DNA of 48,804 nt from Lachnospiraceae bacterium (lineage in GTDB: Bacteria > Bacillota > Clostridia > TANB77 > CAG-508). The notes beneath the pieces are model-generated. The model made no database searches. It was not told the DNA's origin and saw only the letters and a program-made list of their open reading frames with translations. This document shows, in pieces, positions 7,230-29,171 of the stretch; position 1 is the first letter of the stretch, and every line of letters begins with the position of its first letter. A program made the position numbers and the translations under genes. The stretch is from the NCBI GenBank assembly GCA_031262685.1, contig JAISHG010000121.1, positions 1-48,804 of the forward strand, given 5' to 3'.

Positions 7230-7252
7230 ATTAGCGAAATTTGGAGGAAAAG

Positions 7253-8749
7253 ATGATAACAATTGATTTTATAAATAGTCTACTAAAAGTGCTAATTCTA
7301 AACATTTGTATTGTATATATTTTTGTAAGGATTATTCATTATACAGATATTAATTTTTCTAAAAAATTAAAACTTAATTTGTTTAATATAGTAGTATCCT
7401 TCTTATATGCTTTCTTTCTTGATAGAATTGGTTTACTTATGGATACAATACTTCTGATATTTGTAATTAGTGTCATCATGAAATTTATTACAAAAAAACA
7501 ATTAAATTATAGTGTTTTTATAACAATTATATCTGCAACTATTGCCTTTGTTGTTTTTATTATTTCGATAACAGGTACTGCACTGTTTGCAAAATCACCA
7601 ATATTTAATTTGAACCATTATGAATCTATAGGTATGATACTTGCTGGAGTATTAGAATTAGTATTCATAAACCGAATTTTCAAACTTAAGCGTTTTAAAA
7701 AAGGGCTTACGTTTCTAAAAGAAGAAAAATTTTCCGGAAATATTATGCTTTTAGGTATAGTTCTTAGCGGCATGGTAGTTATAATTTATACTATACTATC
7801 TAAAACTAAAAATGATGATACTACTGTAACCCTAATCTCCGGTGCGATTTTGGTTGCAATCGGTATATTTATTTGGGCTCAAAAATCTATAACATCACAT
7901 TACAAAAATTTATTAAAAAAAGATACTATTAAACTATTAGAAAGCGAACTTATAAAAGAAAAAGCAGAAAAGGATAAAATATACAAAGAATTAGAAACTA
8001 TAGCTACAATAAATCATAAATACGCACATAAAATATCTGCTTTAGAATATAAAATCGAAAAGTATAATTCTTTATTATCTGCTAATATTGAATTCTCAAA
8101 CGAAATTGCAAATATGAAAGATGCGGTAAAAGAATTGTCATCAGAATATACTGCAGAAATAACTAAGAAAATGGTGGGCTTGAAGGATTTATCTAAAACA
8201 GGATTCTTAAAAATAGATAATATGCTAGAGTATTTTAAGGCAAATGCACAAGAATGCAAAATAGATTTTGTTTTCGAGCAAGAAGTAGATATACGTGAAC
8301 TTGTTAATGAAATTATAGAAGAAGAACGTATAGAAATACTAATTGCAGATCATGTAAAAGACGCTATAATTGCAGTAGAGCATTCTAAAAATTTAAACAA
8401 AACAATTAAACTTAAGTTTTGTAAAGAAAATGGAATTTATGCATTAAAAATATATGATACAGGTATAGAGTTTGAAATAAATACCTTAACTAACTTGGGT
8501 GCAAAACCGATTACTACTTATAAGAAAGAAGGCGGAAGTGGATTGGGATTCATTACTACTTTTGAAACGTTAAAGAAATGCAAAGCCAGTTTATTTATAG
8601 AAGAATTTTGTCTGACAGAAAAAAACATCTATACAAAAGGAGTTTCAATACATTTTGATGGAAAAGAAGAATATAGAATTAAATCTTATAGAATGGAAGA
8701 AATTCTAAAATCTGCAGGTGAAAACAAAACATTTAAGGTAGTAGTATAG
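7253..8749 (+). CDS. polytopic sensor histidine kinase, AgrC/HPK10-like layout
   Basis: About six N-terminal hydrophobic segments, a coiled-coil linker, and GHKL ATPase blocks YDTGIEF and GGSGLGF. Candidate phospho-His in INHKYAHKI. The start was moved to ATG 7253 behind GGAGGAAAAG. Confidence 0.7.
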   Translation: MITIDFINSLLKVLILNICIVYIFVRIIHYTDINFSKKLKLNLFNIVVSFLYAFFLDRIGLLMDTILLIFVISVIMKFITKKQLNYSVFITIISATIAFVVFIISITGTALFAKSPIFNLNHYESIGMILAGVLELVFINRIFKLKRFKKGLTFLKEEKFSGNIMLLGIVLSGMVVIIYTILSKTKNDDTTVTLISGAILVAIGIFIWAQKSITSHYKNLLKKDTIKLLESELIKEKAEKDKIYKELETIATINHKYAHKISALEYKIEKYNSLLSANIEFSNEIANMKDAVKELSSEYTAEITKKMVGLKDLSKTGFLKIDNMLEYFKANAQECKIDFVFEQEVDIRELVNEIIEEERIEILIADHVKDAIIAVEHSKNLNKTIKLKFCKENGIYALKIYDTGIEFEINTLTNLGAKPITTYKKEGGSGLGFITTFETLKKCKASLFIEEFCLTEKNIYTKGVSIHFDGKEEYRIKSYRMEEILKSAGENKTFKVVV

Positions 8750-9718
8750 CTATATGTTAGCTAGAGGATTGCTTTCAACAGCAGCACGGACTTGACTATT
8801 ATCTACATGTGTGTATATTTCAGTAGTAGCAATGCTTTCGTGACCTAAAAGCTCTTGTAAGGCACGAATATCGACATTACCGTATTTATACATAAGTGTA
8901 GCAGCAGTATGTCTTAATTTGTGAACTGAATACTTATTTATATCTAACCCAGTTTTTTGCAATTCGCGTTTAACTATGTACTGAACAGTTCTAGAACTAA
9001 TTCTCTCTTTTCTTTCGCTTAAAAATAAAGCATCTCTGGCATCATTTTTTGCTATATCGTGTGGGCGAACGCTTAGGTAGTCATTTATTGCGTTTACACA
9101 TGCTTTGTTTAAATATATGGTTCGTTCTTTATTTCCTTTACCAATTACGTTTAGTTTGTAATCACTAAAATTTATATCTTTAATATTTATATTTATAAGT
9201 TCAGACAAACGAATTCCGCAGTTTAAAAATATTGTTATTATTGCATAATCGCGCTTATTATTTCTGTTTTCTTCTTCATGAGTTTTTGTTAGCAAATCAA
9301 GACTTTCATTCAAAGATAAGTACTTGGGCATACGTTTTTCTAATTTTGGTGTTTCTAAATTTTGTGCAGGATTTATTTTTAGAATATTTGCTTTTTGAGT
9401 TAAATAGTTGAAAAAAGATCTTATGCTTGCAACTTTTCTTGCTCTTGTTGCAGCTTTTGCTTTAAGTTCATTTTTTAAATATGCAAGGTATGAGTGCAAA
9501 TCTTCTAATTTTAATTTTTCAAGAGACTCTATAGTCATGGAACTAATAGAGCAATTTTCAAAATCGGTTTTAGAAGTGGGACGAAGTTCTATGTATTTTA
9601 AAAAATTTAAAATATCATAATTATATTCTTTTATAGTATTTTTAGATTTGTTTAATATAACACCTGAGTAATCTAAGAATGAATTTAAAAAATCCGGATT
9701 ATCATTTCTATTTATCAT
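8750..9718 (-). CDS. tyrosine site-specific recombinase (XerC/XerD family)
   Basis: 322 aa with catalytic blocks LRHTAATLMY and GHESIATTEIYTHV. Its stop codon abuts the kinase stop codon with no gap. Confidence 0.85.
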   Translation of the reverse strand: MINRNDNPDFLNSFLDYSGVILNKSKNTIKEYNYDILNFLKYIELRPTSKTDFENCSISSMTIESLEKLKLEDLHSYLAYLKNELKAKAATRARKVASIRSFFNYLTQKANILKINPAQNLETPKLEKRMPKYLSLNESLDLLTKTHEEENRNNKRDYAIITIFLNCGIRLSELININIKDINFSDYKLNVIGKGNKERTIYLNKACVNAINDYLSVRPHDIAKNDARDALFLSERKERISSRTVQYIVKRELQKTGLDINKYSVHKLRHTAATLMYKYGNVDIRALQELLGHESIATTEIYTHVDNSQVRAAVESNPLANI

Positions 9719-10934: not shown

Positions 10935-12801
10935 GTGTTAGAACACGTTAATAATGTAGAAGACTTAAAAAAATTAGATAAAACTCAAAAAATAGAATTG
11001 GCAAAAGACATAAGGAAAGAATTAATAAATGTAACATCTAAAACAGGAGGGCATTTGGCATCAAATTTAGGAGTGGTAGAGCTTACAATAGCTCTGCACT
11101 CTGTTTTTGATGTTCCTCAAGATAAAATTGTTTGGGATGTAGGGCATCAAACTTATGTGCATAAAATGCTAACAGGTAGAAAAGATAAATTACATACAAT
11201 AAGGCAATTGGATGGGATTTCGGGGTTCCCTAAAACGTGTGAGTCGATATACGACTGTTTTGATACTGGGCACAGTAGTACTTCTATATCTATTGCACTT
11301 GGAATGGCAAGAGCAAACGCCATAAATAAAATAAAAAATCGTGTTATTGCAGTTATTGGGGATGGTGCTTTGACAGGTGGTATGGCACTAGAAGCCTTAA
11401 ATGATGCTGGAAGTAGCAATGCAAATATATTAGTAGTATTAAACGATAATGAAATGAGCATATCTAAGAATGTGGGTGGCGTGCGAAATTTTCTTACTAA
11501 ACTTCGTACTAAAAAGTTTTACAAAAAAACTAACAATGTTACAAAAAAAGTTTTAAATAAGGTACCGCTACTTGGTAGTTTTAGCATTAAACTTGCGAGA
11601 AGAATAAAGCAAGGAATAAAGCAAATTTTTATACCAAACATGTTCTTTGAGGATATAGGTTTTACTTATTTTGGACCTGTAGATGGACATGATATAGAAA
11701 AACTGGAAAGCATACTAAACCTAGCAAATTCACAAGAAGGACCTATTTTAGTTCATGTAATAACTACAAAAGGAAAAGGTTATGAAATTGCAGAACTTGA
11801 TCCAGGTAAATTTCACGCAATATCTAAGTTTAATATAGATACTGGGGAATTAGAAAGTGCCAAAGCGAAAGATTATTCTTCTGTATTTGGAAATAAATTA
11901 GTAGAGCTTGCAACTAAAGACGAAAAAATTGTTGCAGTTACAGCTGCAATGGCAGATGGTACAGGACTAAAAGATTTTTCGGAAAAGTTTCCGAATAGAT
12001 TTTTTGATGTTGGCATAGCTGAGGAACATGCAGCCCGGATTAATTGCAGGAATGGCAAAACAAGGATTAAAGCCAGTATTTCCCGTTTATTCTTCGTTTT
12101 TGCAAAGAGCATATGATCAAATAATTCATGATGTTTGTCTGCAAAATTTGCCTGCTACAATCTGTATAGATAGGGCTGGTTTGGTTGGGAACGATGGAGA
12201 AACCCATCAAGGTTTGTTAGACTTTGCATTTCTCCAGACAATACCAAATATAAATATACTAGCGCCAAAGAATTTTATGGAGTTAGAGCAAATGCTAGAG
12301 TTCTCAGTTAATAGTAATATTCCAATAGCTATTAGGTATCCCAGAGGTGCTGAAGGAAAAACATCTTTAAATTCTAATTCGCCCATAGTTTTAGGGAAAT
12401 CCGAAATATTATGTAAGGGTGAAAAAATTGCCCTACTTGCTATTGGAAAAATGGTGGAAAGAGCGTGTGAAGTAGCAGATATTTTAAAAAGACAAGGAAA
12501 GAACATAACAGTTGTAAATATGAGGTTTTTAAAACCTATAGACAAAGATTTAGTCTTAGGCATCTTGACCACAAATAAATATGTTGTTACTTTAGAAGAT
12601 GCATATATAGCTGGAGGACTTGGAACTGCAGTTTCAGAGATAATTGTAGAGAATAACGTTCGAGATATTTGTTTGCTAAAACTAGGGTATCCAAATGAAT
12701 TTATTAAACATGGAAACGTAGATCAAATAGAAAAAAAATACGGATTAGATACTGCTTCTATGGTAGAAAAAATAATTCAATTGACTAAAGGGTCAATTTG
12801 A
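10935..12801 (+). CDS. dxs: 1-deoxy-D-xylulose-5-phosphate synthase, interrupted by a +1 frame break at CGG 12036-12038
   Basis: The ORFs 10935..12116 and 12028..12801 overlap. Frame 0 gives ...DVGIAEEHAA. Skipping C12036 continues GLIAGMAKQGLKPVFPVYSSFLQRAYDQIIHDV, which is canonical Dxs. The joined length is 621 aa. Confidence 0.9.
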
Positions 12802-17255: not shown

Positions 17256-17321
17256 AAATGTTACAAAAATGTTACAAACAGATTACAGATATGTGATATT
17301 TGTGCTTTGTTTGTAACATTT
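17256..17321. promoter_or_regulatory. candidate operator: 12-mer AAATGTTACAAA twice in tandem plus one inverted copy
   Basis: Copies at 17256-17267 and 17267-17278 with an 11-bp period. The exact reverse complement tttgtaacattt is at 17310-17321 and abuts the -35 element. Confidence 0.45.
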
Positions 17322-17322
17322 G

Positions 17323-17351
17323 TTGCTTTTTGAAAATTGTTTTTATATACT
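17323..17351 (+). promoter_or_regulatory. candidate promoter of the filament operon
   Basis: TTGCTT (17323-17328), 17-nt spacer, TATACT (17346-17351). Confidence 0.4.
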
Positions 17352-17389
17352 TATTTTAAAGTTAAAAAGAAAACTTAGGAGGAATAAAT

Positions 17390-18349
17390 ATGGCTTCAAA
17401 TCCAATGAAAACAAGATCAAACAATTCATTTTTTTTAGGAATGCTAGTAATGCTAATAATAGCAGGAATAGCAATAGCAGGAATAATATTCTACTTTAAT
17501 AATTCAAAAACTGGCGTAGGGACCAAAAGTAAAGATGGTAAAACGACTCAATTAGTTTATAAACTAACTAGAAATGTGGCATCAGGAGAAGAAATCACAC
17601 TTGCAGATTTGGTTCCTGAGGAAATTAACACCGAAATAACAGCCGACAAATTGGTAAATAGTACATCTTTCCAAGGTCAAATGGAATTAGAAACAGGAAC
17701 GATGGTAGACGAAAGATTTATAGCAAAAATTGCTTTACCTTCAGGCACAGTAGTTACTACTGATATGCTAGCCTTAAGAGATAATACTGTAACCACGTCT
17801 GGTGGTGCTGTAACATATAAACCTGATTTGAGATTACAAGAATACAATATGATTCAATTACCATCAAATTTACAACCGGGAAATTATGTAGATATTAGAT
17901 TTAGATTATCAGATGGACAAGATTTTATTGTAGTAAGTAAAAAACAAGTAATGGAAACTACCCAAAATGCTATATGGATAGTTTTAGATGAATCAGAAAT
18001 AATGTTAATGAGTAATGCAATAGTTGAATCATACATATTGGGAAGTTCATTATTATATGCAACAACATATACAGAACCTGGATTGCAGGCACAAGCATCA
18101 CACACATATCTACCTAGTACAGCAGTAATTAATGCAATTTCGAAAGATCCCAATATAACAGTAACAGCAAGAAATGCTTTAGTAGCGGAATTTAATAGTG
18201 ATACTAATACAGACCGTCCAATAAGAAGTACTATAAATGGATATATTTCAAGTGCAAACGAGGAAGCTTTATCAGCAATACAAGAAAAGATAACTGAATC
18301 TCAAACAAAAGCCGCAGAAGAAAGAGCAAATTTCTTATCTGGAATGTAG
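17390..18349 (+). CDS. CpaB/RcpC-like pilus assembly protein (SAF domain), membrane anchored
   Basis: N-terminal TM helix, SAF-like VYKLTRNVASGEEITLADLV, and RcpC-like PGNYVDIRFRL. AGGAGG RBS. Confidence 0.6.
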   Translation: MASNPMKTRSNNSFFLGMLVMLIIAGIAIAGIIFYFNNSKTGVGTKSKDGKTTQLVYKLTRNVASGEEITLADLVPEEINTEITADKLVNSTSFQGQMELETGTMVDERFIAKIALPSGTVVTTDMLALRDNTVTTSGGAVTYKPDLRLQEYNMIQLPSNLQPGNYVDIRFRLSDGQDFIVVSKKQVMETTQNAIWIVLDESEIMLMSNAIVESYILGSSLLYATTYTEPGLQAQASHTYLPSTAVINAISKDPNITVTARNALVAEFNSDTNTDRPIRSTINGYISSANEEALSAIQEKITESQTKAAEERANFLSGM

Positions 18350-18360
18350 TGGAGGAAATT

Positions 18361-19053
18361 ATGAAGAAAATAGGATTTATTGGTGCGTTCGATAAAACAG
18401 ATTATATTATATATGTTGCAAGACTACTTACTCTTGCAGGAAAAAAAGTTATACTTATTGATTCAACTGTTAATCAAAAAGCAAAGTATATAATCCCTGC
18501 AGTAATGCCTATAAGATCATATGTTACAGAGTATCAAAAATTTGATGTATCTGTTGGGTTTTACGGCTTTGGGTCAATTGAAGAGTACTTATATATAGAT
18601 AACATAGAAAATTCATACGATGTAGCGCTAATAGATATAGATTCTCCAGAAGTGTTTGCTAATTTCGATATGGAATATGCAGATATAAATTACTTTGTAA
18701 CATCTTTCGATATGTTCTCACTTAGAAAAGGATTAGAAGCAATAAGTGGTCTTAAAGAAATCACTAAATTCAAAAAAGTTTTATTAGCTAGAGACACAAT
18801 AAAACAAGATAATGACTATTTAAATTTTCTTTCAGAAAATTTGAAAGTTATGTGGGACGATGAGATTATATGTTTCAAACCAAATCAAATGGATACCAAT
18901 ATAATGATAGAAAATCAGAGAAGTGCAATACTAAATTTTAAAAGTTTATCTCCAGATTATTTGGGAAATATATTACAAATTACAGAAGAAATTGGAGATA
19001 AAAACTCAAACGAACTAAAGAAAATTTTAAAATCAAATGAAAAAGGGGTATAG
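18361..19053 (+). CDS. ParA/MinD-superfamily TadZ/CpaE-like protein with deviant Walker A
   Basis: IGFIGAFDKTDY...AGKKVILIDST shows GxxxKT in place of GGxGKT. Walker-B-like YDVALIDID. ATG 18361 follows GGAGGAAATT. Confidence 0.5.
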   Translation: MKKIGFIGAFDKTDYIIYVARLLTLAGKKVILIDSTVNQKAKYIIPAVMPIRSYVTEYQKFDVSVGFYGFGSIEEYLYIDNIENSYDVALIDIDSPEVFANFDMEYADINYFVTSFDMFSLRKGLEAISGLKEITKFKKVLLARDTIKQDNDYLNFLSENLKVMWDDEIICFKPNQMDTNIMIENQRSAILNFKSLSPDYLGNILQITEEIGDKNSNELKKILKSNEKGV

Positions 19054-19056
19054 GCT

Positions 19057-19881
19057 ATGGCAATAGTAACATTTTGGAGTAATAATAAAAAGCAGACTTA
19101 TCAAACTGCTTCTATGGCAGCAATAGCAACGAGTCTAGTTGTAAACCATAATTTTAAAACATTACTATTATCAACAGAGCCTAAAGATACATCTTTGGTT
19201 GATGCTTTTATAGACACATCAAGAGACGATTTTATAAAAGGTATAATGGGAAATAAAATTGATATGGCTGCTGGATTAGATGGTCTGGTAAAGCTTTATA
19301 CAACAAACAAACTAAATCCAGAATCAATAACAGATTATGCTAGAATAATTTTAAAAGGAAATAGATTAGAAATACTTCCAGCACCTGAGGAAGAACCAGA
19401 GCAACCAGAAATAGCACTTGCTGCATACAAAGATGTTTTGCTTACAGCAGAAAAATTTTACAATATAGTTTTTGTTGATTTGTCTAAAGGGTTAGATAAC
19501 GATATGTCAAAACAGATTTTAGAAATGTCTGATTTAGTTGTGCTTACAATTACTCAGGGCATACGAGAAATAAATTCATTTATAGAGGCTAGGGAAAGTA
19601 ATCCAGTACTTATGTCAGATAAAATTATATTGTCAATAGGTAGATACGATAATTATTCAAAATATACAGTTAAGAATGTGGCAAGAGCTTTAGGAAATAA
19701 AATTTTGCCATACACAATACCATATAACACACTATTTTTTGAAGCATTCAATGAAGGCAAACTTTTGGATTTCTTTATAAAGTTTGCAAACTCAACATTA
19801 CCAAATAGCAACACTTCGTTCATGACAGATGTAAAAACAACAAAAGATGCGTTAATGCAAAAACTTGCCGATGTTCGGTAA
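19057..19881 (+). CDS. second ParA/MinD-like TadZ/CpaE-like protein, degenerate P-loop
   Basis: VTFWSNNKKQTYQTASMAAIATSL and the NIVFVDLSKG block. The gene ends ...gtt CGG taa, so the penultimate codon is CGG. Confidence 0.45.
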   Translation: MAIVTFWSNNKKQTYQTASMAAIATSLVVNHNFKTLLLSTEPKDTSLVDAFIDTSRDDFIKGIMGNKIDMAAGLDGLVKLYTTNKLNPESITDYARIILKGNRLEILPAPEEEPEQPEIALAAYKDVLLTAEKFYNIVFVDLSKGLDNDMSKQILEMSDLVVLTITQGIREINSFIEARESNPVLMSDKIILSIGRYDNYSKYTVKNVARALGNKILPYTIPYNTLFFEAFNEGKLLDFFIKFANSTLPNSNTSFMTDVKTTKDALMQKLADVR

Positions 19882-19925
19882 AAAACTTTAAATAAAAGAC
19901 ATTTTAGTAAGGGAGGACCTCATAA

Positions 19926-21830
19926 ATGATATTAAATATTATACTAATAATACTTGTGTTGGTTGCAGTATTTTTTGGAATAAGAGTTGTTATAAACAAG
20001 AATAAAAATGAAGTAGTAGAAGAACAATTCGAAAAAGATACTCAAACATATACTTTAGAAAGAATGACGGAATACGTAAAACGTAGAATAGATGAAATTA
20101 CAAAAGTCAATTTGTACGATATTGGACTTTCTGAAGAAGAACTTAAAAGAAGAAAGAAAAAGAAATACGAATTAAAAAAAGCTTTAAAAGGCTGTACATA
20201 TGGAGATGTCAACGACAAAAAATATATTAAAGAAATAATATATGATTTACTATTCCAAGAATATGGTGTAAATGAAACAAATATATCACATGCTATTCCA
20301 TTCGATACACCTTCTTTACTTATTGCCCAAGATAAATTCGACATACTTATATACATGTACAAAAAAGAATTTGGTTATGAAGCGTTAACACAATTAATTA
20401 AAAAATATAATTTGGCAGTTTTAAAATATATATCTGGAGAAACAAAGCCTACATATGTAATTACAGAAGAAGAAATTTCCAACATATATACGGAAGAAAA
20501 TTTACAATTAACATTAGAAGATAAGTTAAATGTTATTGTTCAAAGAATATACCAACATTATAAAGGTTACAGTAGTATAGATGAAGTTAGGGATATGAAC
20601 ATAGATGGTGTATCTGGTGGTGTATCTGGACTTCCAGAATCTTTCTTAAGTCAAGTTGCGCAAACAGATGGAGATTACCTTACTCAAATTGCAGAAAGAA
20701 AAGTACCTAGAGCATGCGATGCTATATGGATATTTTTCCAAGGAAAATCTATAAGACTTGCATTTTTATCATTTAAAACAGAAGCAGAATTAAAAAGGGT
20801 ATGCCAAAATATATACAAATATAATAATCCAGGACAATTATCTGATACAAATGGATTCAAAATAAATGAAATGAAGGACGGTTCGAGGGTTGTTGTTGTA
20901 AGACCAAGCTTCTCAGAAACATGGGCATTCTTTGTTAGAAAGTTCGACGTACAAAGAGCTACTTTAGAGCAATTAATAACAATACCAGGTAAAGAAGATA
21001 CAATAGAATTATTAAAGTATTTAGTTAAAGGTGCCAGAATTATTGCACTTACAGGAGAGCAAGGTTCAGGAAAAACAACAATGCTTATGGGAATGATAGA
21101 AAACATATACGAAACAATGAATATAAGGGTTCAAGAAACTGCATTCGAGTTGCACTTAAGAAAAATTTATCCTACAAGAAACATATTGTCATTTAGAGAA
21201 ACAGACACAATTTCTGGTCAAATGGGATTAGACGTTCAGAAGAAAACAGATGGTTCTGTTAATATAATCGGTGAGGTTGCTACAGACCCAGTTGCTGCAT
21301 GGATGATTCAAGCAGCTCAGGTTGCGAGTAAGTTTACATTGTTTACTCACCATGCTAAAACGTTTCCTAACTTAGTAATGGCACTTAGAAACTCTTTGTT
21401 AAAAACAGGTATGTTTAATAATGAAAAAACTGCAGAAGAGCAGGTTGTTGGAGTACTAAACTTTAATATACACTTAGTAAAAGATTTTAAAGGACGTAGG
21501 TACATAGAAAGAGTAACTGAATGTATTCCAGTAGAAGATAAAAATGATTATAGTTTTGAGTATAAAAAGGAAAACACATTAGAAGGAAAAATAGATAAAT
21601 TTATGGATAATGCAACTAAGTATTTTACAAAAGTAACAAACAAAGAATTATACAAATATGTAAATGTTTTAGAATATAGAGATGGTGAATACGTAATTAC
21701 AAATAAAATCTCAAATGCAAATTTATTAGAGATGCGTAATAATATGGACGAGATAGACACAGAAAATTTCCTTAAGTTTGTGGAAAGACATTGGGGAGCA
21801 AAAACAGCAAGTGAAATTAAAATAGATTAG
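19926..21830 (+). CDS. CpaF/TadA/VirB11-superfamily secretion ATPase with N-terminal TM anchor
   Basis: Walker A GEQGSGKTT, Walker-B-like GSVNIIGEV and His-box FTLFTHHAKT. Residues 1-22 are hydrophobic (MILNIILIILVLVAVFFGIRVV). Confidence 0.75.
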   Translation: MILNIILIILVLVAVFFGIRVVINKNKNEVVEEQFEKDTQTYTLERMTEYVKRRIDEITKVNLYDIGLSEEELKRRKKKKYELKKALKGCTYGDVNDKKYIKEIIYDLLFQEYGVNETNISHAIPFDTPSLLIAQDKFDILIYMYKKEFGYEALTQLIKKYNLAVLKYISGETKPTYVITEEEISNIYTEENLQLTLEDKLNVIVQRIYQHYKGYSSIDEVRDMNIDGVSGGVSGLPESFLSQVAQTDGDYLTQIAERKVPRACDAIWIFFQGKSIRLAFLSFKTEAELKRVCQNIYKYNNPGQLSDTNGFKINEMKDGSRVVVVRPSFSETWAFFVRKFDVQRATLEQLITIPGKEDTIELLKYLVKGARIIALTGEQGSGKTTMLMGMIENIYETMNIRVQETAFELHLRKIYPTRNILSFRETDTISGQMGLDVQKKTDGSVNIIGEVATDPVAAWMIQAAQVASKFTLFTHHAKTFPNLVMALRNSLLKTGMFNNEKTAEEQVVGVLNFNIHLVKDFKGRRYIERVTECIPVEDKNDYSFEYKKENTLEGKIDKFMDNATKYFTKVTNKELYKYVNVLEYRDGEYVITNKISNANLLEMRNNMDEIDTENFLKFVERHWGAKTASEIKID

Positions 21831-21881
21831 TAATTAATAGTAGATTATAAGTTATAGCAAAAGAAAGAGGTGTGCAATTAC

Positions 21882-23963
21882 ATGTCAATGGATATAATAA
21901 GAATAATAATGATAGTTAGTGTTGTACTATTTCTAGGAATAGTAATCGCATACTTTATTTTAAATAAACGAATGAAAAGACAATTAGGAGATATACAAAA
22001 TTTAAGAATTAAAGATCCGAAACAAAAGAAATCATCAGATATCAAGTATCAGAAATTGTATCTTCTTTACAAAAAATTACCTTTTATAAATAGGTATATG
22101 AATAAAATTAGAAGAAGATTAGAAATTATAAATCTTCAAGATGAGTATAAAACAAGAATACAAACAGCTAAGGTACTTACTCGAGGATTAATAATAGTTG
22201 CAATACTTACAATAATAATAGTTGCAATTACAAAAAGTAATACTTTCTTAATGTGGGTTTTATTAATTTTCGAAATAGTAATTGTTGAATCTTTTATCAG
22301 TGGTATGGTAGACAAAATGGATACCAAGCTCCTAAGACAACAGATAGATTTTTTTAGTGAAGTACGTCATGCGTATCACGAGTACAACATGGTAGAAGAG
22401 GCCATATATGCCGCAGCACAAGAAGATGACGAAACAGAAATAGCACATCAAGCTGAAAAAGTGTATGAAATACTTACATCAGATGATCCGGAAACAGAGT
22501 TAGAAAAATATTACGATATAGCTCCAAATAGTTATTTGAAGGAGTTTGCAGGAGTCTCATACTTAACAAAAGAGTTTGGAGATAGACAAGTAGATGGAGC
22601 ATCCTTATATCTGAAGAATTTAAACAATATAACTCAAGAAATGCAATTAGAAATATTAAAAAGAGATAAACTAGATTATGTTTTTCAAAGTTTATCAATA
22701 ATATCTGCACTACCAGTTTTACTTATAGAACCAATAAAAAATTGGGCTATATCTAGTTTTGCATTTACAAGTAGCTTCTATAATGGAAAAGCAGGATTAA
22801 TAGTTCAAGTACTATTACTAATCCTAACATTAGTTTGTTACATATTAATTAGAAAAGTTAAAGATAATGGTTCAATTAAAGATGCATATAAAGATGTAAA
22901 TAAAACATGGCAAGTAAAGGCATATAAACATTATTTAGTAAAAAAATTCGTAGATCTTTTTGTTCCTAAACGCGGTACTAAAAGTTATAGAAAAAATATA
23001 GATTTACTAAAGCAAGCCGCATCTAAGCAAAAAATAGAGAGTTTATACATAAATAGATTAGTTACTTTTATCGCAACATTAATTGTTAGTTTTGTTTTTT
23101 GTTTGCAAATGCATAATATTGCAATCTCATATGTGTACGAACAGCCAACAACAGACTACAACATTATAGGTGGTATGTCAGAGCAAGACAATGCTAAAGC
23201 TATGGCTCTTACAGCAGCAGATAATGTTTACATAGACAAATATAAAAATAATAGTAAAGTCACAGTTGATATGATTAAACAAGACTTGAAAGATGATAAG
23301 GATTATAAAGAAACTGCAGATAAAGACTTACAAACAGTAGCACAAAGAATATACGATAAGGTTTTAGTAGTAAACAAAGAGTATTTACAATGGTTCGAAA
23401 TATTATTATCATTTGCGTTTGCCGCAATATCATATTATGTACCAATATGGCTTTTAGTTTTCCAAAAAATAATGCGAAAACTAGAAATGGAAGACGAAGT
23501 CATGCAGTATCAAACAATAATAATGATGTTAATGAAAATCGAAAGAGTTAACGTAGAAATGATACTAGAATGGCTAGAAAGATATTCTAATATATTTAGA
23601 GAGCCAATATCAAAATGTGTAAACAACTATGAAGCTGGCGCTTGGGAAGCATTAGATGAACTTAAAAATGATATATCTTTCCCACAACTTATCAGAATTG
23701 TAGAAAGTCTTCAAGCTGCAGTAGAAAAAATACCAATTGCAGAGGCATTCGACGAATTAGATACAGAAAGAGCGTATTATCAAGAAAAACGTAAAGAATC
23801 AAACGAAAGATTGGTATCAAAAAAAGGTTTAATAGGTAAAGGAATAGGTTTTGCACCAATGGTATTGCTATTTATAGGTTACTTAATTGTACCACTAGTA
23901 TTTATAGGATTGACCTCAATGATGTCAGGATTTAATTCAATGTCTGCTATGGCAAAACAATAG
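21882..23963 (+). CDS. large polytopic membrane protein, candidate TadB/TadC (PilC-family) platform
   Basis: At least 7 hydrophobic helices in 693 aa, immediately downstream of the ATPase gene. The family call rests on position and topology only. Confidence 0.45.
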   Translation: MSMDIIRIIMIVSVVLFLGIVIAYFILNKRMKRQLGDIQNLRIKDPKQKKSSDIKYQKLYLLYKKLPFINRYMNKIRRRLEIINLQDEYKTRIQTAKVLTRGLIIVAILTIIIVAITKSNTFLMWVLLIFEIVIVESFISGMVDKMDTKLLRQQIDFFSEVRHAYHEYNMVEEAIYAAAQEDDETEIAHQAEKVYEILTSDDPETELEKYYDIAPNSYLKEFAGVSYLTKEFGDRQVDGASLYLKNLNNITQEMQLEILKRDKLDYVFQSLSIISALPVLLIEPIKNWAISSFAFTSSFYNGKAGLIVQVLLLILTLVCYILIRKVKDNGSIKDAYKDVNKTWQVKAYKHYLVKKFVDLFVPKRGTKSYRKNIDLLKQAASKQKIESLYINRLVTFIATLIVSFVFCLQMHNIAISYVYEQPTTDYNIIGGMSEQDNAKAMALTAADNVYIDKYKNNSKVTVDMIKQDLKDDKDYKETADKDLQTVAQRIYDKVLVVNKEYLQWFEILLSFAFAAISYYVPIWLLVFQKIMRKLEMEDEVMQYQTIIMMLMKIERVNVEMILEWLERYSNIFREPISKCVNNYEAGAWEALDELKNDISFPQLIRIVESLQAAVEKIPIAEAFDELDTERAYYQEKRKESNERLVSKKGLIGKGIGFAPMVLLFIGYLIVPLVFIGLTSMMSGFNSMSAMAKQ

Positions 23964-23994
23964 CTAAAAATGTACGAAAGGGATGAATGTTAAT

Positions 23995-24627
23995 ATGGAA
24001 AATGCATCAAAAGCCTTAATTATGGCAGGAACACTATTAATAGCCATTTTAACAATCGCTGCATTGGTATATGCAATAAACTATTGGGATATTATCCCGG
24101 AATCACAAGCAGAAGCCAAAAGAATGAGACAAATTACCGAATTTAATCAACAATACGAGTCATACAATAAGTCAGTGCTACTTGGAACCGACGTTCTATC
24201 TGTAGTAGGTAAGTCAATAAATAACAACGAATATCAATATACAGAAGATAATTATGCAATTGATATTCAGTTTAAACTAATAAAGCAAATTAAAAATACG
24301 ACAATTACATATAAATTAAATTCGGAAACAGAAACATATGAAGTTGGTAGAGAATACTCAGGTGCAAAAATGGAAGTTAATAAAACCTATAGCACTATTA
24401 CGGATAAAAAGTTTCTACAAGATGAATTATTAAAAGGTAGTAAAGAATCTGTAGCTGGTATAAGAACAGAAGTGCCACCAAATTCGTACAAAATTGAATA
24501 CTCAATGTATATAGATTTTAAACGTAAAGTTTTTACATGTGAAGAAATAAAGTATAACAAAGTTACCGGTAGAGTAGAACTAATGGTATTTAAGGAAATA
24601 AAAGCCACATTGTATGAAGAGTATTAA
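23995..24627 (+). CDS. pilin-like protein, MENA family (paralog 1)
   Basis: MENASKALIMAGTLLIAILTIAALVY N-terminus followed by a non-hydrophobic, variable region. The start was trimmed to match the paralogs. Confidence 0.55.
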   Translation: MENASKALIMAGTLLIAILTIAALVYAINYWDIIPESQAEAKRMRQITEFNQQYESYNKSVLLGTDVLSVVGKSINNNEYQYTEDNYAIDIQFKLIKQIKNTTITYKLNSETETYEVGREYSGAKMEVNKTYSTITDKKFLQDELLKGSKESVAGIRTEVPPNSYKIEYSMYIDFKRKVFTCEEIKYNKVTGRVELMVFKEIKATLYEEY

Positions 24628-24660
24628 ATTTATGTTACATTATAGGAAGGAATGAGTGGA

Positions 24661-25152
24661 ATGGAAAATGCATCAAATGCTTTAATAATAGCAGGAACTC
24701 TACTAATAGCTATAGCTATTATTGCTACTGGTGTAATAATAATAAATTCCGGCTCTGCTACGGCGCAAGATTTTGATGAAAAGCAAGCTTTAATTTTACA
24801 AAACAGATATTTAGCGCAATTTGAAAAGTATAATAGCGAAAAAATTGATGGTCAGTACAAGCCAGAAATTAATATACTAGACGTACGAACTTTAGTAAAT
24901 TTGGCTGAAGATTATATAGCAGATGGAGGAGAAGCAACTGTAACTCTTAATGGAGCTTACATTCTTAAGGGGGATAATAAAGAGTTTAATATAAGGAAAG
25001 AAGAAGACTATTGGAAAGGCGAAACAGAAAAGAATTATTACAATGTTGCAAAAAATGAAGAAATAAAAAAGTATAAGTGTGAGGTTAAAATTAATTTGTA
25101 TGAGAAAAGTGCAATATTAAGAAGTATAGATGTAAAACTCACAACATTGTGA
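24661..25152 (+). CDS. pilin-like protein, MENA family (paralog 2)
   Basis: MENASNALIIAGTLLIAIAIIATGV N-terminus. AGGAAGG RBS. Confidence 0.55.
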   Translation: MENASNALIIAGTLLIAIAIIATGVIIINSGSATAQDFDEKQALILQNRYLAQFEKYNSEKIDGQYKPEINILDVRTLVNLAEDYIADGGEATVTLNGAYILKGDNKEFNIRKEEDYWKGETEKNYYNVAKNEEIKKYKCEVKINLYEKSAILRSIDVKLTTL

Positions 25153-25198
25153 TTTACATAATTTGTAATAACTTGTTAGCCGGATTGTGCGAAATTTG

Positions 25199-25227
25199 TT
25201 GCAAAACGGTACAATATGTAGTATAAT
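25199..25227 (+). promoter_or_regulatory. internal sigma-A type promoter
   Basis: TTGCAA (25199-25204), 17-nt spacer, TATAAT (25222-25227). Confidence 0.55.
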
Positions 25228-25244
25228 TTAGATAGGAGTTTGTC

Positions 25245-25679
25245 ATGAAAAAACCATTGTTAGTTATTTTAATAGTATTTGCCTTGATTATGATAGTTTT
25301 ATTAGTATTACTACAAATAGCTAAGTCAAACGAAGCAGAAATAAAATCTCATAACATAGAATATGAAAATTTGCTTAATAAGGAAATATATGGAACAGAG
25401 GTTACTTCAGTAATCAATAAAGCCATAGATAACAACGAAAAAAACAATATTCAAAAAGATGCAGATGGACAATACATAAGCGATGATGCAAACTCAATTA
25501 AAATAGATTTGAAAATGATTTCTCAAGAAGGAACATATTCAATGGAAGATATAGAAAAACTAGGAATAGTAGAGTTTTCAAAATATTTTAATACAGTACT
25601 TTTCAAGTGTACAGGTATAGAGTATCATAAAGATACAAAGAAGATAAGTAAAATTGTTTTTGAACAATTAACAAATTAG
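25245..25679 (+). CDS. N-terminally anchored small protein, candidate minor pilin / TadE-F-like
   Basis: MKKPLLVILIVFALIMIVLLVLL signal-anchor followed by a 120-aa non-hydrophobic region. Confidence 0.4.
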   Translation: MKKPLLVILIVFALIMIVLLVLLQIAKSNEAEIKSHNIEYENLLNKEIYGTEVTSVINKAIDNNEKNNIQKDADGQYISDDANSIKIDLKMISQEGTYSMEDIEKLGIVEFSKYFNTVLFKCTGIEYHKDTKKISKIVFEQLTN

Positions 25680-25762
25680 TCATTATTATTTTAGATTGGT
25701 TATAAAAAAGCATAATCTAAAAAATATATAAAAATTTTAAATATTCAAAGGAGGAAATTATT

Positions 25763-26173
25763 ATGGAGAACGCAACAAAAGCTTTAATCATTGCAGGTGC
25801 AATAATAATTGCGATAGTATTAATATCTTTAGGAGTAATGGTACTAGGAATTGGACAAGATCAAGTAGGTCAAACAACAGACTTAATGACATCACAAGCA
25901 GTTGAAACATTTAATTCAACGTTAACCGGTTATATTGGTGATTCAATAAAAGGTTCATCAATAAGAGCTTTATTTTCAAAAGTAAATGCTATGAATGCTC
26001 AAGCTAGAGCTAATCAAACTGGAAGAGAGGTAGTATTCGACGAAGGAATTAAATCTTTAAATCAAATAAATAATAGCAAGACATATAAAGTAGAAGCCAC
26101 TTATGATAATGATGGATATATCTCTGCATTAACAGTTACTGAAAAAAAACCAACAACAACAACTGAGAGTTAG
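25763..26173 (+). CDS. pilin-like protein, MENA family (paralog 3); candidate major subunit
   Basis: MENATKALIIAGAIIIAIVLISLGV N-terminus. Shortest paralog (136 aa), with the strongest RBS (AAAGGAGGAAATTATT-ATG) and its own upstream intergenic region. C-terminus KKPTTTTES. Confidence 0.55.
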   Translation: MENATKALIIAGAIIIAIVLISLGVMVLGIGQDQVGQTTDLMTSQAVETFNSTLTGYIGDSIKGSSIRALFSKVNAMNAQARANQTGREVVFDEGIKSLNQINNSKTYKVEATYDNDGYISALTVTEKKPTTTTES

Positions 26174-26184
26174 GAATATGTATT

Positions 26185-26856
26185 ATGGAAAATGCGGTAG
26201 ATGCCTTAAAAATAAGTTTTGCAGTATTTGCGTTAGTCTTGGCTATAGCTATAATAATGCCACTAATTTCAATAACAAAAACTACATCAGATGCAGTAAT
26301 TGAAATGTCTAATAAAGAGACATATGCTGAATTTGTATTTGGAAATGAAGAGAGCAAACATAGAAATGTTGGCATTGAAACTATAATACCAACACTATAT
26401 CGTTACTATAACGAAAGATATGCTGTGGCAATAGTTGAAAAAAATGATAGTTTGCAAGATTTATTTGACTTGGAAACTGAAAGGTTGTTATACTCTAATA
26501 CAAATAAATCTAATGAAAATCAAAAGTTTTCATACAACGTAGATAGTCTATACAACTCAAAATTAATATATGCAAGTGGTATTTTATGGACAGCCAAAGA
26601 ATCAGATGCAAATCTACGAATAGACGCATATGTAAGCGGTCTAAATACCATAATTAATGGAAAAAACTTGTTAACAGATAAATTAGATTGGAGTTCAACT
26701 TATTTAGAAACTTTTTCAATTGACAACACAGATGTACTGTATACAGTACAAGATTACAATGATAGTGATGCAGGTGGAAATCTAAATAATGATGGTTCAG
26801 AAATATTGTTAGTACGAGGTTCAGAGAAAGTGCATATAGAATACAAGAAAAAATAG
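26185..26856 (+). CDS. pilin-like protein, MENA family (paralog 4, divergent)
   Basis: MENAVDALKISFAVFALVLAIAIIMPL N-terminus. Confidence 0.5.
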   Translation: MENAVDALKISFAVFALVLAIAIIMPLISITKTTSDAVIEMSNKETYAEFVFGNEESKHRNVGIETIIPTLYRYYNERYAVAIVEKNDSLQDLFDLETERLLYSNTNKSNENQKFSYNVDSLYNSKLIYASGILWTAKESDANLRIDAYVSGLNTIINGKNLLTDKLDWSSTYLETFSIDNTDVLYTVQDYNDSDAGGNLNNDGSEILLVRGSEKVHIEYKKK

Positions 26857-26868
26857 GAGGGGATTTGT

Positions 26869-27396
26869 ATGAGTGATTCACTAGTTATGATTATAGGAAT
26901 AATACTAGCAGCAATATTAATGTTCATATTTCCTATGATGACACTAGCAGAAAGGAATGATGATGTTACACAGCTCGCAGTTTATACTGCTACAGCAGAT
27001 TTTGTTGATTCTGTTAGCTCAAAGGGTGTAATTACGAATGACGAATATTCAGCCTTCATACAAACACTTTCTGCAACAGGAAATTTGTACGACATAGATA
27101 TACAAATATATAATTTGGATGAAAATGTTGGTAAAAAAGTTTCTTGGACTGAAGGTACTGTAATAGGAGAAAATGGTTATACTGTTGATCACACAACGCA
27201 AGTTATGAAGGATTTAGATTTAGACGGAGCACGACCATTAAAAGAAGGAGATAAAGTATCGGTAACAGTAAAGAATACTAATACTACTTTAGCACAAATG
27301 TTGAGGTCATTTCTTTATAAGTTAACAGGAACATCTCCATACGAAATATATGCAGAGCATACCAGAGTTGTAACATCAACAGGTAGAACATTATAA
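26869..27396 (+). CDS. N-terminally anchored protein, candidate minor pilin
   Basis: MSDSLVMIIGIILAAILMFIFPMM anchor. GGAGGGG RBS. Confidence 0.4.
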   Translation: MSDSLVMIIGIILAAILMFIFPMMTLAERNDDVTQLAVYTATADFVDSVSSKGVITNDEYSAFIQTLSATGNLYDIDIQIYNLDENVGKKVSWTEGTVIGENGYTVDHTTQVMKDLDLDGARPLKEGDKVSVTVKNTNTTLAQMLRSFLYKLTGTSPYEIYAEHTRVVTSTGRTL

Positions 27397-27518
27397 GAAT
27401 CTTAATTTCATAATGGCGAGCTATTAGCTCATCCGATATATGGAAAAACTTTTAAAATTGTGGCGACCCTTAACTAGAGGACGCCTTTTTTAAAATTTTA
27501 TAGGAGTTAGGTGAACAA

Positions 27519-29138
27519 ATGAAAATACACAATATGGCTATAATATTTTTAATAATAATATTACCATTAACTATGCTACTTTCTTCTTATGTGCAAGTTC
27601 AAGTTGATACGGCTTTACTTATAAAACAATACGATACAAAACTTAAAAGTGCAACATACGATGCCATTAAAGCATACCAAACAAACACATTGCGAGAAGA
27701 TATGTCTGTTACATTAGCAGATGCTAAAAAAGGTAATATAGAGGCGGCAATATCCACATTTATATCTACCTTAACAATTAGTATGGGTGTAGGTGGCTAT
27801 AATGAAGACTATATGAGGCAATTCGTACCAGCAATACTATTTTCAATGTATGATGGATACTATATTTATGCACCGACAAGAGTACCAGTGTTAAATGAAT
27901 ACGGAAACGAAACAGACGAGTATGTGTATCAATACATTTTAAGACCATATAATTATTACTCTGTAAGATTTACTGATGCAGCAAAAAGTATAGATGTTGT
28001 TATAAACTACTCATTAGATAATTATGTAGTGGTATATGGTTGGGTAGGTAGTGACTATGTTACAAAATCAGGCTATCTAGTATCAAACAATGTAGATGTG
28101 CAAACTTCTGAAAGTTTATATAAATATCTACCTGCTTATAGGGCACAATCTGCTGGTAATAACGAATTGTTATTCTATACAGATCCAGCAGGTCAAGAAT
28201 TAATGAAATATAGAGTTACAGATCCAGCATTTGGACCTGATACTAAAGCAACGGCAGGAAGTACAGTATTATACCCAAGAAATGAAGTCCAATATGTAGA
28301 TCCGAATAGTGCAACTTTATACTATGAAGAAGCAAATCAATTTACATCATGGTTTAGGGGTGCCTTAGGAAGCGTAACAGCAGATAAAGCACGTAGGGTA
28401 GACCAAGAAGGTGGATACGAGTACTTATTTCCAGGCGATACTACACAAATATTTAATTTTACAAATAACAATCCAGAAGATTTAACATCTACTTTTACGC
28501 AATACAAAATGGAAATAATTAGAAGGTCAATAGAAGATAGTTTAAATCAAGCAATAAGCGCATATAGTGATAATTCGTCTAGTTATGATTATAGACTTCC
28601 AAAACTTTTAGAAGAAGACTGGTTTTTACTTCTTTCTAATGTTTGTATGTTAACATTTATGCAGGGATTGCCTGTAGGAACAACTTATTATAATAATTAT
28701 GCAATAGTACGTAGTAGCGCAAATCAAGATTTTGCCGGACCAGAAAGTTTGTATTTTGTTAATCAAAGTGCGGATGGAGCATTAACAGGAGATGGTTATT
28801 ATCACACCATCGATTGTACGCATTTGCAAAATTCAAACATTGTAGGATATTCAAATGTGGATTATATACAAAAATCATTTAGTACAGGTAGTGGAGAGCC
28901 AAGAAATTACTACCTAAAAAGACCAGAAAAGGCATGCTATTACTGCATTGTACAGCATAAAGACTACAAGAAAGATATTGTTGTTAATGATAAGAATTAT
29001 GATGGTGAGATAGATTTAACAGAATTCCTTGATGCAGGTGGGAACGAGGCGCGAGCAAAAGCATATTATACTACTCTTGCAAGAGAAAAATATAAGCAAT
29101 ATAAGCCAACAGTATTTGGAATGGATGGAGATGAATAA
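27519..29138 (+). CDS. 539-aa N-terminally anchored protein, candidate tip or accessory subunit
   Basis: MKIHNMAIIFLIIILPLTMLLSS anchor followed by a large non-hydrophobic, Tyr/Asn-rich region. YYHTIDC...ACYYC motif near the C-terminus. Confidence 0.4.
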   Translation: MKIHNMAIIFLIIILPLTMLLSSYVQVQVDTALLIKQYDTKLKSATYDAIKAYQTNTLREDMSVTLADAKKGNIEAAISTFISTLTISMGVGGYNEDYMRQFVPAILFSMYDGYYIYAPTRVPVLNEYGNETDEYVYQYILRPYNYYSVRFTDAAKSIDVVINYSLDNYVVVYGWVGSDYVTKSGYLVSNNVDVQTSESLYKYLPAYRAQSAGNNELLFYTDPAGQELMKYRVTDPAFGPDTKATAGSTVLYPRNEVQYVDPNSATLYYEEANQFTSWFRGALGSVTADKARRVDQEGGYEYLFPGDTTQIFNFTNNNPEDLTSTFTQYKMEIIRRSIEDSLNQAISAYSDNSSSYDYRLPKLLEEDWFLLLSNVCMLTFMQGLPVGTTYYNNYAIVRSSANQDFAGPESLYFVNQSADGALTGDGYYHTIDCTHLQNSNIVGYSNVDYIQKSFSTGSGEPRNYYLKRPEKACYYCIVQHKDYKKDIVVNDKNYDGEIDLTEFLDAGGNEARAKAYYTTLAREKYKQYKPTVFGMDGDE

Positions 29139-29146
29139 CTAAAAAA

Positions 29147-29170
29147 TGTAGGGGAAACCCTGCATTTTTT
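29147..29170 (+). terminator. rho-independent terminator of the filament operon; shares the TGTAGGGG head
   Basis: aaaaaATGTAGGGG-aaa-CCCTGCATtttttt. Confidence 0.75.
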
Positions 29171-29171
29171 A

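Follow-up and report, generated by a model that had tools for sequence, protein, structure and literature searches.

A probable divergent Tad-type pilus operon of the gut order TANB77, with related modules on plasmids of cultured Bacillota

The closest described relative of the locus treated here is a pilus cluster of 10-14 genes that Kim et al. (Nat Commun 2024; PMC11680825) report as conserved in TANB77, an uncultured order, where 122 of 129 species have it. Its reference copy, genes 927-938 of CAG-245 sp000435175, encodes products of 358, 231, 280, 640, 693, 165, 170, 143, 146, 237, 178 and 621 amino acids (aa). With the help of eggNOG, InterPro, DeepTMHMM and AlphaFold/Foldseek, these were assigned as CpaB, TadZ, CpaE, TadA with one transmembrane helix (TMH), a TadC+TadB fusion with eight TMHs, and seven single-TMH pilin-like proteins. 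The last product, 938, is partly similar in structure to TadE/PilV; as a recombinant protein it activates dendritic cells via TLR4 and improves the anti-PD-1 response in mice. Among gut genomes, few homologues were found outside TANB77, and the paper makes no mention of a peptidase, a leader or an N-terminal motif (PMC11680825). Here we focus on a cluster of twelve genes, g1-g12, from Lachnospiraceae bacterium (TANB77; CAG-508; assembly GCA_031262685.1), found on contig JAISHG010000121.1, positions 1-48,804; this whole stretch of 48,804 nucleotides is referred to as the window. The cluster is probably a chromosomal operon that encodes a divergent Tad-type (type IVc) pilus in a monoderm gut bacterium able to form spores.

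The cluster is orthologous to the published TANB77 pilus gene cluster and is a rediscovery of it in another species of the clade. Gene content (12 genes) and gene order are the same in both, the product sizes are nearly identical and the assignments agree; the genes other than the ATPase gene are 33-61% identical. A first-pass annotation of this DNA, made from the sequence alone, had listed departures of the cluster from Tad/Flp systems; the cluster and nearly all of those departures had already been published (PMC11680825). Absent from that work are the N-terminus M-E-N-A-x-K/D/E-A-L, with which four of the pilin families start exactly, the occurrence of the module on 34 plasmids, and a conserved 11-bp tandem repeat upstream of g1. 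The features of the locus, from 5' to 3', are as follows:

17256..17389, + strand: upstream control region with 11-bp tandem repeats, an inverted copy, an AT-rich promoter-like stretch and the g1 ribosome-binding site (RBS) AGGAGG
17390..18349, + strand: g1, CpaB/RcpC-like, 319 aa; membrane anchor at the N-terminus, SAF-type domain
18361..19053, + strand: g2, divergent ParA/MinD-like, 230 aa, with a degenerate P-loop G[AV][YF]DKTD; longest open reading frame (ORF) from 18349
19057..19881, + strand: g3, TadZ/CpaE-like ATPase-domain protein, 274 aa, without an N-terminal receiver-like domain
19926..21830, + strand: g4, CpaF/TadA-type assembly ATPase, 634 aa, with a membrane helix at residues 1-26 and an N-terminal extension of ~240 aa
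21882..23963, + strand: g5, apparent fused platform protein, 693 aa, with 8 predicted membrane segments
23995..24627, + strand: g6, pilin-like paralogue MENASKAL..., 210 aa from MENA; start by RBS spacing, ORF possible from 23983
24661..25152, + strand: g7, pilin-like paralogue MENASNAL..., 163 aa from MENA; start by RBS spacing, ORF possible from 24652
25245..25679, + strand: g8, pilin head-domain paralogue, 144 aa, with MKK and a hydrophobic anchor instead of MENA
25763..26173, + strand: g9, candidate major pilin, 136 aa, N-terminus MENATKALIIAGAIIIAI...
26185..26856, + strand: g10, pilin-like paralogue, 223 aa, with a variant N-terminus MENA[AV][DE]ALK
26869..27396, + strand: g11, separate membrane-anchored family, 175 aa; N-terminus M-[GS]-D-x-L..., residue 22 Pro
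27519..29138, + strand: g12, 539 aa, large protein with a membrane anchor, encoded last in the cluster; counterpart of 'pilin 938' (PMC11680825)
29140..29171, + strand: intrinsic terminator with an A-tract, a 14-bp stem, a GAAA loop and a U-tract

All 12 ORFs between 17390 and 29138 run co-directionally on the + strand with short intergenic gaps, and GC content and skew are uniform throughout. Judged by RBS spacing, the longest-ORF starts are too early for four genes (g2, g5, g6 and g7): the spacing favours 18361 for g2 and 21882 for g5, giving 693 aa for the latter, and for g6 and g7 it favours the Met of MENA, which is internal to the longest ORF. A hydropathy scan finds a single N-terminal hydrophobic segment in g1, in g4 (residues 1-26) and in each of g6-g12, and eight predicted membrane segments in g5. 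Curated models are nearly silent on these products, of which g4 alone passes a Pfam threshold.

Conservation of the arrangement is extensive. Synteny is kept in all 82 related loci examined, and each cluster gene has homologues in 48-82 of them. Gene-by-gene inspection of seven loci, L001 and L002 among them, showed the same 12-gene order in each. With the locus of Clostridium sp. CAG:245 (L036) the window cluster aligns gene for gene, the ATPases being 78% identical. Across the 82 loci identity is ~80% for the ATPase, ~61% for the platform and 33-49% for the remaining genes; because of this difference the relatives can be regarded as quite diverged species in which the motor is under unusually strong constraint. 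Homologues of g4 number in the thousands, the best 120 of them being 79-84% identical, and in a collection of one genome per species at least 577 species genomes encode a relative. The few named homologues belong to uncultured Clostridia of the gut (for example Candidatus Merdicola and 'Clostridia bacterium'). The genomic context is chromosomal, with a HAD hydrolase gene upstream and either a glycogen phosphorylase gene (in the window) or SpoIVB (in other loci) downstream. A sporulation-linked role suggested by SpoIVB was ruled out, as that neighbour is not conserved. A spoIIIA-type sporulation channel was ruled out as well, the cluster carrying ParA-like, CpaB-like and CpaF-like proteins, and so was a prophage or mobile-element origin, given the uniform GC and skew and recombinase genes more than 15 kb away.

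How the proteins relate to known Tad components was addressed mainly by hhalign profile-profile comparisons with reversed-sequence controls. The reference sets were small and came from canonical Tad loci on plasmids of Rhizobium etli, Sinorhizobium meliloti and Photobacterium damselae (L085, L090 and L091) and from Firmicute Tad loci on plasmids of Clostridium botulinum, Thermoanaerobacterium and Alicyclobacillus. The ATPase is the clearest case. The g4 product scores 29.3 bits against Pfam T2SSE (PF00437; gathering cutoff 24.9), and among PDB sequences nothing but CpaF, with three sequences (E 3.5e-11, residues 269-537), matches it at E<=0.001; the Walker A motif GEQGSGKTT, Walker B, the acidic boxes and the His box are aligned. 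Its score against TIGR03819 is far under the cutoff, and g4 is for this reason regarded as a distant member of the CpaF/TadA family.

The g1 family matches a set of five CpaB/RcpC sequences with an hhalign probability (Prob) of 96.4% (P 1.2e-9; reversed control 2%), its matches to Pfam SAF (E 0.027) and TIGR03177 (E 0.023) being sub-threshold. Over the ATPase domain, the g3 family matches the TadZ/CpaE set with Prob 94.1% (P 1.2e-7; reversed control 0.3%), and the best PDB match of its profile is the ParA family ATPase 3ea0 (E 0.0013); matches to CpaE-type curated models are far under cutoff. TadZ proteins are known for an atypical Walker A motif, and the g3 P-loop varies in keeping with this, reading GKT or GQT according to species and TYQT in the window copy. 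Among orthologues the loop takes the forms ..E-x-x-G-K-T and ..K-x-x-G-Q-T, as though the Lys had moved, while T-Y-Q-T in the window has neither the Gly nor the Lys. The g2 family did not match the TadZ/CpaE set; it reaches Prob 35% (P 4e-4) against the g3 family. Profiles of g1, g2, g5 and g9 gave noise or marginal matches only against PDB sequences, that of g2 falling weakly on the P-loop region of MinD (E 0.11).

The platform protein g5 was compared in halves, against reference sets of 4-5 sequences. Its N-terminal half matches the set of first platform genes, which stand in the tadB position after the ATPase gene, with Prob 95.5% (P 1.4e-8), and its C-terminal half the set of second platform genes with Prob 95-97% (P 1e-11 to 4e-8), a signal that comes mainly from the Firmicute genes. 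The cross pairs and all reversed controls stay below 8%. As the halves match the two platform genes specifically and in gene order, g5 appears to be a collinear fusion of two Tad platform paralogues, TadB-like and then TadC-like. The consensus of the C-terminal half also aligns over nearly the full length of the Pfam T2SSF model at a sub-threshold score (E 0.04; 14.3 bits, cutoff 25.2). Comparison of the family profile with single TadB or TadC sequences was null, the signal arising only against small platform-gene alignments. The platform family is broad, with 1054 clusters at 50% identity and full-length members down to 25% identity. In the two-domain platforms of archaea, the N-terminal domain is TadC-like and the C-terminal domain TadB-like (Denise et al.; PMC6668835). 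The order in g5 is the opposite, which favours a secondary fusion of adjacent tadB and tadC genes over a surviving ancestral form.

The canonical Tad/Flp pilus of Aggregatibacter, Caulobacter and rhizobia thus shares with the TANB77 locus CpaB/RcpC, TadZ/CpaE, CpaF/TadA and TadB/TadC-like domains, encoded in the order cpaB-tadZ-tadA-tadB-tadC and followed by subunit genes. The TANB77 version differs in that the platform is a single polypeptide, the ATPase is anchored in the membrane and extended by a long stretch at its N-terminus, and a second ParA-like gene is present. Its subunits are proteins of 136-223 aa with a globular head rather than Flp pilins of ~60 aa, and bear no G/XXXXEY motif. 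TadE/F/G are not detectable in the locus, and neither TadV nor a secretin is present, the latter as expected for a monoderm.

Because every core part maps specifically to Tad components, the system, on TANB77 chromosomes and megaplasmids alike, appears to be a divergent branch within Tad. The suggestion in the first-pass annotation of a distinct lineage of the type IV filament superfamily does not hold up, as g1, g3, g4 and g5 match CpaB, TadZ/CpaE, CpaF and TadB/TadC; its broader statement of a Tad-like type IV filament locus does. So do its identification of a CpaB/RcpC-like SAF protein, a membrane-anchored CpaF/TadA-type ATPase and a single large platform protein in place of a TadB plus TadC pair. 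Of the two ParA/MinD-like proteins it named, g3 is well supported and g2 weakly. As for the families on which that annotation staked its reading, g4 falls inside T2SSE, and g5 fails the Pfam T2SSF threshold while its halves match the Tad platform gene sets. The gene order it gave, cpaB-tadZ-tadA-tadBC-flp-tadEFG, applies through the platform and then to subunit genes in general, but not to Flp or TadE/F/G, for which no match was found.

The seven proteins encoded after the platform gene had all been described in one way, as an N-terminal hydrophobic helix plus a non-hydrophobic region of variable length. Each does have one N-terminal hydrophobic segment, but g6-g10 are paralogues of one another while g11 and g12 form separate families. 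Homology among g6-g10 extends over the whole length at hhalign Prob 95-99.9%, the g8-g10 pair being linked only via g6, g7 and g9. The values are 96.8-99.9% for g6 against g7, g9, g8 and g10; 99.2%, 97.9% and 94.9% for g8 against g6, g7 and g9; and ~97% for g10 against g6, g7 and g9. No hhalign match to these paralogues was found for g11, and no Pfam match for g12. In an AlphaFold2 (AF2) model of g9, built on an alignment of 114 sequences (mean predicted local distance difference test score, pLDDT, 84.9), residues 2-55 form one helix, and the rest folds into a beta-alpha-beta-beta-beta head. The model thus has the general type IV pilin shape, a long N-terminal helix with a small alpha/beta head. 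The N-terminal 25 residues of g9 are almost invariant, and the head is ~35% identical between species. We consider g9 the best candidate for the major pilin subunit because it has the best RBS in the cluster (AAAGGAGG, 8-nt spacing), is the shortest paralogue, is tandemly duplicated in some species and is the closest match to the pilin P1 of the plasmid-borne modules described below.

A search of PLSDB with g4 (tblastn) recovered 34 large plasmids of cultured Bacillota (100-543 kb) with a full-length homologue, at 37-57% identity and with more than 80% of the query covered. They belong to Paenibacillus (10), Clostridium (9), Lysinibacillus (8) and Butyrivibrio (2), with one each in Cohnella, Thermobacillus, Cytobacillus, Alkalihalophilus and Sporosarcina. 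Examples are pBsph (Lysinibacillus sphaericus C3-41), pPPM1a (Paenibacillus polymyxa M1), pBpOF4-01 (Alkalihalophilus pseudofirmus OF4), pCY186 (Butyrivibrio proteoclasticus) and pINGR16-02E1 (Clostridium botulinum). Eight loci were fetched (L083, L084, L086 and L092-L096; e.g. NC_010381.1, which is pBsph, NC_017543.1, NC_013792.1 and NC_014390.1), and all eight encode a SAF protein and either one ParA-like protein or two, followed by the ATPase, a platform protein 665-690 aa long and four further proteins, P1-P4. By hhalign, P1 matches g9 best among the paralogues (98.4%, P 8e-15), P2 matches g10 (93%) or g7, P3 matches g11 (99.9%, P 1e-35) and P4 matches g12 (99.9%, P 3e-31).

The core order is therefore common to TANB77 and the plasmids, whose ATPases are 37-57% identical to g4 over more than 88% of the length, and plasmid P1 shares the very short N-terminal segment before the helix. 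The plasmids carry two pilin paralogues, in contrast to five in TANB77. In Bacilli, the module is followed by genes for proteins with SLH, stalk or copper amine oxidase N-terminal domains and for a giant DUF5704 protein. The two Clostridium plasmid loci fetched have no first ParA-like gene, and the C. botulinum ATPase has no membrane anchor. We found no published analysis of the plasmid module as a system.

The N-terminus of the pilin-like proteins is their most distinctive trait. Across the 82 loci, the pattern M-[ED]-N-[AG]-x-x-A-[LM] occurs close to the start of 291 ORFs; 278 of these begin at that very Met, making a long leader impossible. In g6, g7, g9 and g10, M1, N3 and A4 are 100% conserved and E2 94-100%. 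The Flp motif G/XXXXEY is absent from all seven N-termini read (g6-g12), as the first-pass annotation had noted. Residues 6-11 were compared with the class-III cleavage pattern, [KRDE][GA][hydrophobic]x3, which reportedly derives from archaeal FlaFind work. It fits 70/70 sequences of g9, 66/72 of g6 and 58/67 of g7 (194/209 for the three together), and only 3/57 of g10. The P1 proteins of the distant plasmids begin MSNAQKAL, MSTNASKAL, MDSVTKAI, MNNASSAL, MESPVVKAI, MGENARKAL, MGENGRKGL or MGGSLSEGL. Glu2 is often lost among them, while the junction [K/S/E]-[A/G]-[L/I] is retained, with 5 to 8 residues before it and only Ala or Gly just before the helix.

Like archaeal class III signal peptides and type IVa leaders, the TANB77 pilins thus combine a short hydrophilic N-terminus with a charged residue and Gly or Ala, followed by the helix. 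Type IVa leaders, such as MKAQKG, are of a length similar to the 6-8 residue N-terminus of TANB77, and the seven residues of MENASKA are as long as a type IVa leader. In contrast to both classes, the residue at -1 of the putative cleavage site is mostly Ala, and the putative mature end is without Glu5. Bacterial PilD-type enzymes disfavour Ala at -1. On balance we lean slightly towards the view that the 6-8 residue N-terminus may be a class-III signal peptide of minimal length, cleaved by an A24 peptidase encoded elsewhere in the genome.

No such enzyme is encoded nearby. In the window, the best tblastn match to either of two TadV sequences had E=9.9 and a six-frame scan for GxGD[VAIL]K was null; a single polytopic ORF lies outside the cluster (7241-8749), and it has no Pfam match at E<=0.001. 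In the fetched loci, the best TadV tblastn match has E=0.83, and polytopic ORFs of the 82 loci, tried as candidates for the peptidase, are mostly antisense artefacts of AT-rich DNA, none of them A24-like. The statement that the window lacks an A24 prepilin peptidase is thus confirmed, though neither this absence from 49 kb nor the missing motif shows a lack of processing. Firmicute plasmid Tad loci whose pilins carry KKGG/LS leaders likewise have no annotated peptidase in the 9 kb fetched on each side, which makes absence from the locus weak evidence. One of these, L087 12384-14573 on C. botulinum p1_CDC51232, is a more conventional Firmicute Tad locus with split platform genes and several small KKGG/LS pilins, and has no annotated peptidase within 9 kb.

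It is also possible, if rather doubtful, that assembly is independent of a peptidase. The pilins would then be leaderless and retain MENA, and Glu2, with Lys6, would replace the charge pairing of Glu5, the machine being otherwise unchanged. The start of 278 of 291 ORFs at the M of MENA and the near-invariance of its residues in four families fit this proposal, as does the lack of an A24-like gene in the window, the 82 loci and the eight plasmid modules. The N-terminal segment has a net charge of ~0, which may permit extraction from the membrane uncleaved, and g11 has a Pro exactly at position 22 counted from Met1, which we take to be the position of Pro22 in mature type IVa pilins. TANB77 genomes are also reduced in size (contigs of ~1.5 Mb). 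On the other hand, Glu2 is not kept in Cohnella (MSNAQKAL), P. polymyxa (MNNASSAL) or A. pseudofirmus (MDSVTKAI), the conserved [K/S/E]-[A/G]-[L/I] junction resembles a cleavage site, and the length before the junction varies. A leader of seven residues is no shorter than those of type IVa pilins, and the KKGG/LS loci show that leader-bearing systems may also have no annotated peptidase at hand. To our knowledge, every characterised type IV filament subunit is processed.

The occurrence of the module on plasmids brings up a different function, namely that of a mating or DNA-uptake pilus of Bacillota megaplasmids which in TANB77 would still serve DNA exchange and not adhesion. In favour of this are the 34 large plasmids with an ATPase homologue, with the whole module in order in the eight fetched, and the L. 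sphaericus plasmid, in which the module adjoins genes for a TraM-recognition coupling protein and a replication-relaxation (relaxase-like) protein. Plasmids like pBsph are conjugative (PMC13239906). However, pBsph carries its own VirB4/VirD4/VirB6 genes (PMC4363355), so that the Tad-like module is not required as a transfer channel, and the putative link of the module to DNA transfer is one of gene context. In TANB77 the cluster is chromosomal, lies between housekeeping genes and is retained in ~95% of species (PMC11680825), and L001 and L002 have no annotated relaxase, coupling protein or VirB4 in 10 kb on each side. A role in DNA transfer in TANB77 is consequently unlikely, and the TANB77 pilus would likely serve adhesion or gut colonisation.

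Several results weigh against the interpretation as a Tad-type pilus with short, cleaved leaders. Cleavage between Ala and Leu would leave a mature N-terminus without the Glu5 typical of Flp pilins, and searches of the window, of the 82 related loci (~20 kb each) and of the plasmid loci turned up no peptidase gene. The seven anchored proteins match neither the Flp set nor any Pfam/NCBIfam pilin model (Flp, Flp_Fap, Flp1_like), and g6-g12 remain below hhalign Prob 3% against small sets of TadE/F, Firmicute DUF4320-type and TadG proteins. The platform g5 falls under the Pfam T2SSF (PF00482) threshold, a T2SSF match being found in 0/69 diverse members of its family, and its halves have no detectable mutual similarity (internal-repeat test, Prob 4%). 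The order of the halves is opposite to that in Table 1 of Kim et al., where TadC is the first half and TadB the second, and a filament has not been seen in any TANB77 organism, the clade being uncultured (PMC11680825). Foldseek against PDB returned no significant pilin match for the g9 model and no match at E<=0.001 for the all-helical AF2 model of g5 (pLDDT 73). Both nulls are treated as uninformative, and are probably due to the long helix, the all-helical membrane fold and the small number of full-length platform structures.

Such nulls would also suit a system that builds no extended pilus, whether a short pseudopilus or piston for protein export of the type II secretion system kind or a set of seven small surface anchors that do not polymerise; seven different anchored proteins is a high number, and the large surface proteins downstream in plasmid versions (DUF5704, SLH-domain) could be cargo. 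Nevertheless, CpaB, TadZ, CpaF and TadB/C make up the Tad pilus set, five paralogues have the helix-plus-head shape of pilins, and a variable C-terminal part (~35% identical) behind a nearly invariant helix in g9 is the pattern expected of an exposed filament subunit, which leaves this the least probable of the alternatives and very improbable in itself.

The working of the Tad-type pilus would then be as follows, with the steps taken over from established Tad/CpaF systems and the identities of the parts from this analysis. The CpaF-like hexameric ATPase g4, tethered by its own N-terminal helix, would drive the fused TadB-TadC platform g5, while g3 (TadZ-like), g2 (degenerate ParA-like) and g1 (CpaB-like) would position and scaffold the machine. 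The platform would lift pilins from the membrane by their N-terminal helix and stack them into a filament, with g9 as the likely major subunit, g6, g7, g8 and g10 as minor paralogues, and g11 and g12 as accessory or tip components. In a monoderm, a secretin would be unneeded.

The boundaries of the cluster agree in large part with those proposed at first, namely a single co-directional run of 12 genes from a candidate promoter/operator to a strong terminator. At the 5' side, the region 17256-17320 holds the tandem 11-bp repeats ATGTTACAAAA ATGTTACAAAC AGATTACAGAT and an inverted copy, TTTGTAACAT. A related motif, ATATTACA(A/G)AA, is present in 2-4 tandem copies 5' of g1 in 65/76 related loci. 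These direct repeats, of the form ATATTACAAAA in the 65 loci and ATGTTACAAAA in the window, have an 11-bp spacing and lie ~100-170 nt 5' of g1. Their conservation across loci backs the impression of an operator, and they look like binding sites of a putative regulator. The promoter half of the proposal fared less well as to its exact position, since consensus promoter matches are no commoner than in shuffles.

At the 3' end, the hairpin at 29140-29171 folds with -18.4 kcal/mol (z = -7.8), and an equally good fold occurred in 0/200 shuffles, which bears out the strong terminator; a consensus terminator scanner did not detect it. In the spacer between g11 and g12, a GC-rich hairpin with six T is found at 27462-27492 (GGCGACCC...GGACGCC TTTTTT), the z of the whole spacer being only -1.95. 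It may terminate part of the transcripts and so reduce expression of g12, the large gene at the end of the cluster.

Elsewhere in the window, the ORF at 7241-8749, just downstream of the Spo0A gene (6149-6949), encodes a protein of 502 aa with ~7 N-terminal membrane segments and no Pfam match, which could be an unrecognised sensor protein. Two ORFs on the same strand, 10935-12116 (393 aa) and 12028-12801 (257 aa), overlap by 89 nt, as if a frameshift or an assembly error had split a single gene; the pair may be DXS/transketolase-like. A tyrosine recombinase is encoded at 8750-9718. In the region 44189-48381, the gene of a large serine recombinase (44727-46373, minus strand) lies where the GC skew changes sign, and the window may end at the border of a mobile element.

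The cluster is a signature locus of the uncultured gut order TANB77. The abundance of TANB77 tracks the response to checkpoint immunotherapy (PMC11680825) and, as 938 activates dendritic cells via TLR4, knowing how the filament is constructed has practical value. The fusion of TadB and TadC in collinear order is also relevant to the gene-fission scenario that has been published for the origin of Tad systems (PMC6668835). The near-absent leader peptide poses a clean question for type IV pilus biology: if the pilins are indeed uncut and Met1 is retained, theirs would be the first type IV filament to lack the processing that otherwise defines the superfamily. The presence of the module in tractable cultured hosts, namely Lysinibacillus sphaericus, Paenibacillus polymyxa, Clostridium beijerinckii and Butyrivibrio, provides experimental handles for an uncultured clade, and piliation, pilin maturation and function are testable there.

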